A stretch of DNA of 12,186 bases from Methanomicrobiales archaeon (lineage in GTDB: Archaea > Halobacteriota > Methanomicrobia > Methanomicrobiales > Methanospirillaceae): NCBI GenBank assembly GCA_012798365.1, contig JAAZNH010000162.1, positions 1-12,186 on the forward strand. Direction: 5' to 3'. This document shows, in pieces, positions 2,810 through 3,493 of the stretch (positions are counted from its first letter, which is position 1; the number at the start of each line of letters is the position of its first letter). Both the position numbers and the translations under genes were made by a program. The notes under the pieces are model-generated. The model saw only the letters and a list, made by a program, of their open reading frames with translations, did not search any database and was not told where the DNA came from.

Positions 2810-3493
2810 ATGCTTAAGGTGAAACCACACCCGGAATATCCTCCCGAAGAGGGACGATACCTCCGGGGAAACGATTATTCCCCGGCCGCAGTTATCATCA
2901 TTCTCACCTACGATGCTGAAGCGATCCCTCCGGATATTGAAAAACTTGTCCGGACCGGCATAGAAGCCGGTGCCGCACTCTCCGGCACGCTCCAGACAGC
3001 AAACATCGGTATCGAGAAAGTCATCTGCAATATCGTGGCTAACCCGAATATCCGGTACCTGATCCTTGGCGGCCCGGAATCCGACGGGCACAAAACCGGG
3101 GATGCGATCAAAGCGCTGTTGAAAAACGGTGTTGACGAGAGGAAAAATATCATCGGGACAACCGGGCTTACTGCGGTGCTTCACAATGTTCCTGCAGAAT
3201 TCATCCAGCGGTTCCGCGAGCAGCTAACCCTTGTTGATTGCCAATTCCAGGACGAGACCGTGATTAGGAAAGCGGTCTGGTCCTGTTTCCAGGAAAAGCC
3301 GGTGGAGTTCCGGGGTCAGATGTTGTTCGATCCCGGTGCATTCCCCGAGCCTCCGCTGAGCGGGAAACTGACCTGGAATGTCACCCAGCCGTGGGCCGAG
3401 CCGTCCGATGATGGCGAGCGGGCGGCAAAACAGAAAGCACTTGACCGGATCGCACAGCTGCGACAGAAATTGGTATCACTGGACAGGGACTGA
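2810..3493 (+). CDS. MtrA-family (tetrahydromethanopterin S-methyltransferase subunit A-like) cobamide-binding protein, soluble form without a C-terminal TM helix
   Basis: ATG 2810 lies 4 nt after the arsC stop. The block IEKVICNIVANPNIRYLILGGPESDGHKTGDAIKALLKNGVDERKNIIGTTG closely resembles the conserved MtrA core (NPNIRFLILCG.E..GH.TGQ..KAL..NG.D). A His at residue 94 occupies the position of the cobalt-ligating His of MtrA. The C-terminus is a charged coil (ERAAKQKALDRIAQLRQKL), not hydrophobic. Confidence 0.75.
   Translation: MLKVKPHPEYPPEEGRYLRGNDYSPAAVIIILTYDAEAIPPDIEKLVRTGIEAGAALSGTLQTANIGIEKVICNIVANPNIRYLILGGPESDGHKTGDAIKALLKNGVDERKNIIGTTGLTAVLHNVPAEFIQRFREQLTLVDCQFQDETVIRKAVWSCFQEKPVEFRGQMLFDPGAFPEPPLSGKLTWNVTQPWAEPSDDGERAAKQKALDRIAQLRQKLVSLDRD

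Follow-up and report, generated by a model that had tools for sequence, protein, structure and literature searches.

We analysed a 12,186-nucleotide (nt) stretch of DNA from a Methanomicrobiales archaeon (contig JAAZNH010000162.1; hereafter the window), in which a gene for a soluble relative of the methyl carrier MtrA lies between arsenic-resistance (ars) genes and the hgcCAB cassette. The nearest homologues of the window proteins are Methanoregula proteins (78–92% identity), and we take the DNA to belong to a Methanoregula genome. The MtrA-like gene occupies 2810–3493 on the + strand, from an ATG at 2810 to a stop codon at 3491–3493, and encodes a presumed cobamide-binding protein of 227 amino acids (aa). 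Upstream on the same strand are genes for the arsenite efflux permease Acr3 (1297–2385; TIGR00832, 450 bits against a cut-off of 283) and for ArsC, an arsenate reductase of the low-molecular-weight-phosphatase type and thioredoxin-coupled family (2398–2805; PF01451), whose best NCBIfam match, TIGR02691, stays under its equivalog cut-off (130 against 174 bits). A TATA-like A/T-rich stretch lies at 1279–1290 and ATG 1309 is an alternative start for acr3. The gap between acr3 and arsC is 12 nt, and the arsC stop (2803–2805) is followed after 4 nt by the MtrA-like start. On the other side, 109 bp separate the MtrA-like stop from the ATG of hgcC (3603), where the hgcC-hgcA-hgcB cassette begins (3603–5322, + strand; HgcC 3603–3899, HgcA 3901–4980, HgcB 4981–5322; NF040962, NF040863 and NF040864, all over cut-off). 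Both spacings had been given exactly in a preliminary description of this DNA.

The 109-bp spacer holds a T-run and the element TTCTGATTTTTCTGAAATGTATAAATA. This boundary element, 5' of hgcC on the + strand (3541–3567), consists of tandem TTCTGA(T/A) half-sites (3541–3556) abutting a TATA box, TATAAATA (3560–3567). Because the gap after arsC is only 4 nt, and because the T-run and a separate TATA box and operator precede hgcC, we read acr3, arsC and the MtrA-like gene as an operon of their own. It is very likely that the MtrA-like gene is an ars operon member, the terminal gene of an acr3-arsC unit that is preceded by three further genes. These encode a protein like the catalytic subunit of ferredoxin:thioredoxin reductase (FTR), of which the window holds the 3' end (3–223, + strand; PF02943 FeThRed_B, E 4.7e-19), a Cys-rich DGC-domain protein (224–571, + strand; PF08859, E 9e-28) and a DUF166 protein (568–1254, + strand; PF02593, E 1e-32). 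The FTR-like stop overlaps the DGC start (ATGA, 221–224) and the DGC stop overlaps the DUF166 start (ATGA, 568–571), so that the three genes are translationally coupled 5' of acr3 (3–1254); ATG 224 is the probable DGC start, the mechanically called open reading frame (ORF) beginning at GTG 125. The neighbours of the MtrA-like gene are acr3, arsC and hgcC, and the window encodes no Mtr subunit.

Family, fold and predicted cobamide site

The MtrA-like protein matches the Pfam family MtrA (PF04208) over residues 4–168 (E 1.1e-36; 126.5 bits against a cut-off of 25). It also passes the NCBIfam subfamily model NF002126 (PRK00964.1-4) with 184.2 bits against a cut-off of 161, covering profile positions 3–185 of 186, in the range of its bacterial and Bathyarchaeia relatives (176–196 bits). 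By contrast, it falls short of TIGR01111, the equivalog model for true MtrA (120.3 against 249 bits). Sequence matches in the PDB are 5laa, 8q3v and 5l8x. Its AlphaFold (AF2) model, with a predicted local distance difference test score (pLDDT) of 77.6, has a confident core with the Rossmann-type fold of MtrA, and its best fold match is again 5laa (template modelling score 0.86, normalised to the target), followed by 5l8x and 9qtr, with E values down to 9e-16.

The C-terminus differs from that of MtrA. No membrane anchor is present after residue 165 (maximum Kyte-Doolittle 19-residue mean 0.01); in the AF2 model, residues 180–198 have low pLDDT and a helix spans residues 201–226. The extension as a whole (residues 182–227; 3353–3490, + strand) comprises a conserved motif, L-T-W-x-V-T-Q-P-W, and then a charged amphipathic helix. 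It replaces the juxtamembrane segment and transmembrane helix of MtrA, is missing in 5laa and in relatives fused to thymidylate synthase (ThyA), is kept from Methanomicrobiales to bacteria, and marks a clade. The preliminary description had held that a charged C-terminus replaces the membrane anchor and that the protein is not part of the Mtr complex; the lack of a hydrophobic segment, the modelled helix and the TIGR01111 score bear this out.

It had also called the protein a soluble MtrA homologue and had named His94 as the cobalt ligand, which agrees with the PF04208 match and with our alignments. His94 (codon CAC, 3089–3091, + strand) aligns with His84 of Methanothermobacter marburgensis MtrA (8q3v) and with His84 of the cobalamin-bound Methanothermus fervidus homologue (5laa), and is invariant in 48/48 and 22/22 clade members. 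The cobalamin contacts in 5laa, and a hydrogen-bond linkage from His84 through Glu54 to the backbone below the cobalt, have been described (Wagner et al. 2016, PMC4915002). The contacts Tyr18, Thr53, Asn55, Gly57, Asn64 and His84 of 5laa correspond to Tyr17, Thr63, Asn65, Gly67, Asn74 and His94. Besides His94, the residues Thr63, Gly67 and Asn74 are invariant in the clade; position 17 is Tyr in 46/48 members and position 65 is Asn in 39/48. The equivalent of Glu54 is Ala64 in the window protein and Ala, Pro or Glu across the clade. Judging from these conserved positions, the protein probably binds a cobamide. As a site for As(III), the conserved cysteines were discarded: only Cys159 is invariant, and it is not clade-specific, being present in canonical MtrA too.

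Within the subfamily there are fusions to a 2x[4Fe-4S] ferredoxin (P0250) and to an Fe-S domain of the type found in the corrinoid iron-sulfur protein (CFeSP) and RnfB (PF04060; P0253), as would be expected of a cobamide that needs reduction to Co(I). More broadly, relatives at 51–59% identity (P0250, P0253, P0243, P0246, P0248) have extra domains, namely the N-terminal 2x[4Fe-4S] ferredoxin, the C-terminal PF04060, an N-terminal TusA, or a C-terminal domain of about 200 aa that shows a conserved C-x3-C ... C-x6-C-x5-C pattern and has no Pfam match.

In a neighbour-joining tree, which is rough and carries no support values, the ars-linked sequences form one clade apart from canonical MtrA, the M. 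fervidus cytoplasmic paralogue and the thymidylate synthase fusions. Bathyarchaeia lie at the base of this clade and Methanomicrobiales are nested among bacterial sequences. Since the window protein is more similar to a Spirochaetota homologue (69% identity) than to that of Methanosphaerula (64%), and since identity to the window sequence rises and falls together for Acr3 and the MtrA-like protein (Spearman 0.51, p 0.0016), joint horizontal transfer is suggested; the clade seems to have passed between archaea and bacteria of anaerobic habit along with ars genes. The cultured Methanosphaerula subterraneus EG (L026) is among its carriers. The whole MtrA superfamily comprises 745 representatives at 50% identity (E up to 0.001), 49 of which match the window protein at E up to 1e-30, and the Terriglobia branch alone holds at least 120 clusters at ≥77% identity.

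The ars-linked clade is only part of the NF002126 subfamily, because the thymidylate synthase-fused relatives also pass that model. In these fusions, found in Sulfurovum and Thermoproteales (L052:52–1212, L053:604–1911, L054:9974–11233; proteins P0275 and P0276), the MtrA-like domain is joined to a methanogen-type thymidylate synthase (TIGR03283, over cut-off), a pairing of a presumed cobamide domain with a pterin-dependent one-carbon enzyme. We considered DUF166 as a relative of this ThyA-like domain, which would have made a Rosetta-stone link, and rejected it for lack of similarity by BLASTP and phmmer (best E 0.085). An apparent ArsC-MtrA fusion (P0266) has an Arg/Gly-rich middle that looks out of frame, and we treated it as a frameshift or gene-calling artefact.

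Genomic association with ars genes and with hgcCAB

To describe the gene neighbourhood we used one genome per GTDB species. The scan gave 56 loci; four MtrA-thymidylate synthase fusions were set aside, leaving 52 clade loci. ORFs in these loci were called mechanically, ArsC was sometimes masked by antisense ORFs, and ars genes that have diverged strongly escape the tblastn thresholds used. Within 3 kb of the MtrA-like gene, Acr3 was found in 40/52 loci and ArsC in 23/52. Within 10 kb the counts were 35 for ArsP_1, 35 for Thioredoxin_3 (Trx_3), 31 for DGC, 28 for ArsR and 11 for ArsM. Of the 56 loci scanned, DGC occurs in 31 and DUF166 in 22, and both recur in the ars islands of Methanomicrobiales. 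The families at the head of a Pfam census of 138 same-strand neighbours from 25 loci were SBF/Acr3 13, ArsP_1 9, DGC 8, Trx_3 5, ArsM-type methyltransferase 4 and ArsR 4. By our own estimate, chance adjacency to Acr3, of which a genome has one or a few copies, would be around 1%.

ArsC lies directly 5' of the MtrA-like gene in many loci, and the gene closes same-strand ars clusters in L037, L140 and L141. The order is ArsR|DGC-DGC-ArsP-Acr3-ArsC-MtrAL (MtrAL, the MtrA-like gene) in a complete Methanoregula genome, with no hgcAB within 9 kb; Acr3-Trx3-MtrAL in Spirochaetota; ArsP-Trx3-MtrAL-DsbD-Acr3 in Clostridia; and Acr3-Trx3-ArsP-MtrAL in Bathyarchaeia. Acidobacteriota have ArsR-ArsM-MtrAL-Acr3-ArsC as well as a 13-gene ars cluster with Trx3-MtrAL at its end, and ars genes adjoin the MtrA-like gene in Armatimonadota and Zipacnadia too. 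The linkage thus spans two domains and at least six phyla. Because gene order differs between phyla while the association persists, it is more than inherited synteny.

Several other genes were seen at these loci. In Terriglobia, two ars islands with the MtrA-like gene as their last member (L137:2532–5286, L141:5649–7217) encode two to three DGC proteins and a glycine-cleavage-H-like (lipoyl) domain, and the first of them also a lipoate-protein ligase; these genes may form a lipoyl/dithiol-based module for handling arsenite. Directly 3' of the MtrA-like gene in a Spirochaetota locus is a gene for a radical-SAM/SPASM protein (L025:10685–11800), a possible functional partner; 3 of the 138 neighbour proteins, in this and two other loci, gave such matches. 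We also considered a rhodanese encoded next to the MtrA-like gene in Desulfobacterota as an Acr2-type arsenate reductase and dropped it, as its active-site loop is CSQESC and not of the HCX5R type.

The picture for hgcCAB is different. HgcA was found within 10 kb in 7/52 MtrA-like loci, all from Methanoregulaceae, and in these hgcCAB lies 5' of acr3, directly 3' of the MtrA-like gene or 2 kb off; the two adjoin in the window and in L007, L017 and L021. In the reverse test, which used 80 metagenome loci centred on relatives of the window HgcA (46–84% identity), the MtrA-like gene was present in one. Among the 23 of these whose flanks reach 3 kb or more on either side it was again present in one, compared to 10 with Acr3, 8 with ArsC and 8 with ArsR. 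An association of hgcAB with ars islands has already been reported (PMC10349881; bioRxiv 10.1101/2022.10.17.512643). Thus hgcAB and the MtrA-like gene each associate with ars islands and not with each other beyond that. The co-occurrence that the preliminary description had put forward as a check turned out to hold for one half only: we see no enrichment near hgcA and repeated tight linkage to acr3, arsC, arsP, arsR and arsM.

The element in the spacer is a feature of hgcC rather than of the MtrA-like gene. In the form (GATTTTTCT)GATTTTTCTGAAA-N-TATAAATA, it is conserved nearly base for base about 35 nt before the hgcC start (3535–3570 in the window). The strict motif is found 5' of hgcC in 25/46 loci irrespective of an MtrA-like gene upstream, and the element occurs in L007, L012, L017, L021, L057, L060, L064, L066, L076, L091, L093 and others. 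Its sequence has the look of a promoter for hgcCAB joined to a tandem-repeat operator, at which the AbrB-like HgcC itself may act. Because it is kept 5' of hgcC whatever lies upstream, hgcCAB probably carries its own promoter and operator. GC content is 0.60–0.615 in the hgcC-hgcA stretch (3601–5000) compared to 0.52–0.55 in the ars genes and 0.46–0.50 in a downstream membrane-protein gene, which is consistent with a separate origin of the hgc cassette.

The N-termini of HgcA (GSCCSCG...SCGCSG; 3901–3990) and HgcC (SCGCSCNTGC; 3603–3690) are Cys-rich, with motifs of the CC type and not the CU form with selenocysteine that has been described in many HgcA proteins (bioRxiv 10.1101/2022.07.06.499078). 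The membrane-protein gene 3' of hgcB (5603–7051) encodes 482 aa with multiple membrane passes; it matches neither Pfam nor NCBIfam models, and none of the related loci has a counterpart. Further downstream, on the – strand (8468–12060), are genes for an ABC transporter, with a PBP_like_2 binding protein, an ATPase with a TOBE domain, a permease and a second binding protein; this is probably an oxyanion transporter of the tungstate/molybdate type and unrelated to the MtrA-like finding. Rfam and tRNA scans of the window gave no matches. A scan for sigma-70 promoters and intrinsic terminators, which is not applicable to archaea, found sites no more commonly than in shuffled sequences.

Possible roles in arsenic chemistry

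Our preferred explanation, to which we give a probability of roughly 40%, is that the MtrA-like protein, encoded at the end of an ars operon, is a cobamide methyl carrier in arsenic methyl transfer. Its bound cobamide would cycle between Co(I) and CH3-Co(III), and the protein would carry methyl groups to or from arsenic without oxygen. Fe-S partners of the ferredoxin type, which some relatives carry as fused domains, would supply the electrons that re-activate the cobalt. In the direction we favour, the methyl group would be taken from methylated arsenic and the released arsenite expelled by the adjacent Acr3; in the reverse direction, B12-dependent methylation would be coupled to export by ArsP. 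We favour demethylation because the tightest partner is an arsenite pump, because ArsC shares the same logic of converting and then exporting, and because ArsI, the only characterised demethylase, is O2-dependent and cannot serve strict anaerobes. Anaerobic arsenic demethylation has been attributed to methanogens and corrinoid systems, with the enzymes unidentified (PMC10579292; bioRxiv 10.64898/2026.08.27.747368). The parts of this explanation differ in strength: that the protein transfers methyl groups on arsenic is a tentative proposal, and that it does so in the demethylating direction is, taken by itself, unlikely. The preliminary description had raised a part in cobamide-dependent arsenic chemistry as an alternative; the gene context fits such a part, and the step of methylation or demethylation is what we infer from it.

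Several observations weigh against a role as an arsenic methyl carrier. The most serious is that no partner stands out, since a corrinoid protein does not make a complete system by itself: the recurrent families of the neighbour census include neither a substrate-specific corrinoid methyltransferase (MtrH, MtaA/URO-D, MttB, MtaB or pterin-binding) nor a reductive activase. The usual three-component layout, in which a corrinoid protein stands with the methyltransferases MT1 and MT2 and an activase, is not seen, and the only methyltransferase nearby is ArsM, which depends on S-adenosylmethionine (SAM). With Ala64, the protein lacks the hydrogen bond from His to Glu that MtrA has, so that its cobalt may react differently. 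By our own reasoning, it is also chemically awkward for Co(I) to demethylate trivalent methylarsenicals, as the obvious methyl donors are only pentavalent or onium species. Finally, about a fifth of the clade loci have no ars gene in the available flank, a Desulfobacterota subclade adjoins rhodanese and MauE/DoxX genes, loci of Victivallis and of one member of the Spirochaetes lack ars neighbours, and many of the 52 loci come from related Methanoregulaceae, so that the counts are not independent events.

The position of the gene beside hgcCAB had led to the proposal that the protein relays a methyl group, for example from methyl-tetrahydromethanopterin (methyl-H4MPT), to the corrinoid of HgcA for mercury methylation. 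Both are corrinoid proteins, and we know of no identified methyl donor to HgcA; however, we also know of no precedent for methyl transfer from one corrinoid to another. The proposal fares poorly against the gene neighbourhoods: HgcA-centred loci have Acr3, ArsC or ArsR far more often than the MtrA-like gene, few MtrA-like loci have HgcA, the placement of hgcCAB among them varies, the cassette has a conserved putative promoter and operator of its own and a higher GC content, and the clade is abundant where no hgcAB is nearby, as in Terriglobia. We therefore consider such a relay very improbable. It is also improbable, if slightly less so, that the gene is a passenger unconnected with arsenic or encodes an additional soluble MtrA that serves H4MPT metabolism. 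Annotations of the protein read 'tetrahydromethanopterin S-methyltransferase subunit A' throughout, and methanogens do have extra soluble mtrA copies (PMC4915002), but those copies are 60–97% identical to MtrA compared to about 38–43% for the window protein, which belongs to a separate clade that includes bacteria without Mtr and whose ars linkage survives rearrangement across phyla.

Two further possibilities keep the cobamide within the arsenic context. CH3-cobamide on the protein could methylate As(III) independently of SAM, the product leaving through ArsP. ArsP_1 permeases are immediate neighbours in L002, L021, L034, L042 and L049, and McBride and Wolfe reportedly observed, in 1971, methylcobalamin-dependent methylation of arsenic by methanogen extracts. 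Yet ArsM co-occurs with the MtrA-like gene in its 11 loci and does not alternate with it, the tightest partner is Acr3 and not ArsP, and no methyl-loading enzyme is encoded nearby, all of which make this direction quite unlikely. The protein could instead transfer no methyl group, serving a redox or thiol-linked function of the cobamide, or buffering or protecting cobamide under arsenic stress. This would suit the fact that the gene directly follows thioredoxin-type genes (Trx_3, ArsC, FTR) in most loci, the fusions to Fe-S domains and TusA, the rhodanese in Desulfobacterota, the missing methyltransferase partner and the lost His-Glu linkage. On the other hand, Fe-S fusions are equally expected for a reductively activated methyl carrier, as in CFeSP and HgcAB, and all characterised cobamide proteins of the MtrA fold are methyl carriers (PMC4915002). 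We regard a role of this kind as unlikely, though not negligible.

Soluble MtrA homologues, including bacterial ones of about 40% identity, were noted in 2016 without a function (PMC4915002), and the NF002126 subfamily model is already at NCBI. Consistent with the preliminary description, which had called either role undescribed, we found no paper tying the protein to hgcA or to ars genes among open-access papers and preprints. It is tempting to speculate that the clade is the cobamide component of an unrecognised oxygen-independent pathway for making or breaking As-CH3 bonds in the ars operons of anaerobes, an anaerobic counterpart of ArsI or ArsM, although we find this doubtful as it stands. 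If it were true, the ars islands of anaerobes would have independently recruited two unrelated corrinoid proteins, the MtrA-like protein and HgcA, for metal(loid)-carbon chemistry, which would support the idea of an arsenic-related native role of HgcAB.

Methylation and demethylation shape the speciation of arsenic in anoxic soils and sediments, which in turn bears on rice straighthead disease, grain arsenic and groundwater. A cobamide protein that ends ars operons is a cloneable candidate and a metagenome gene marker for anaerobic arsenic methyl cycling; its carriers include methanogens, Bathyarchaeia, Terriglobia, Spirochaetota and Clostridia, among others. Our analysis also corrects a systematic annotation error, the assignment of the MtrA name to proteins of bacteria without Mtr, takes an appealing but unsupported candidate off the list of methyl donors to HgcA, and presents hgcCAB in Methanomicrobia as an autonomous cassette that comes to lie within ars islands.

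Comparison with known systems

Among known ars-operon proteins, ArsM, the SAM-dependent As(III) methyltransferase, and ArsI, a C-As lyase, make and break As-CH3 bonds. Neither has any sequence or cofactor relation to the MtrA-like protein; ArsM is a neighbour in the loci counted above, and ArsI is not among the recurrent families in the 138-neighbour census. The corrinoid proteins of the MtaC, MtmC and MtsB type are, like the role we propose for the MtrA-like protein, small soluble cobamide methyl carriers, and have been implicated in anaerobic demethylation of dimethylarsenate (PMC10579292; bioRxiv 10.64898/2026.08.27.747368). They have a MetH-type B12-binding domain and their genes lie beside substrate methyltransferases and not in ars operons, whereas the MtrA-like protein has an MtrA-type site and no adjacent methyltransferase.

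HgcA and CFeSP resemble the MtrA-like protein as corrinoid proteins in or beside the ars islands of anaerobes that depend on ferredoxin-type reduction, and some MtrA-like relatives carry a CFeSP-type Fe-S domain or an HgcB-like ferredoxin. They differ from it in having an unrelated fold and mode of cobalamin binding: binding in HgcA is reported to be Cys-on, while that in the MtrA-like protein is predicted to be His-on and the latter has no transmembrane domain. HgcA and the MtrA-like protein share the ars island and do not co-occur past it.

The closest structural relative is the cytoplasmic MtrA homologue of Methanothermus fervidus (5laa), a soluble protein of the MtrA fold that binds cobalamin base-off/His-on (PMC4915002). 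Unlike the window protein, it is a recent paralogue, 97% identical to the membrane MtrA of its own organism, with 167–170 aa and no C-terminal extension. With MtrA of the Na+-pumping methyl-H4MPT:coenzyme M methyltransferase MtrA-H (8q3v, 9qtq, 5l8x), the MtrA-like protein shares the Pfam family, the fold, the His-on ligand, most of the cobalamin contacts and a DPGA[FY] segment after the core. It differs from MtrA in lacking the transmembrane anchor, in its place outside the mtr operon, in its score under the equivalog cut-off and in the Ala that stands for the linkage Glu; in turn it has the W-x-V-T-x-P-W motif and the charged helix, occurs in bacteria and sits in ars operons.

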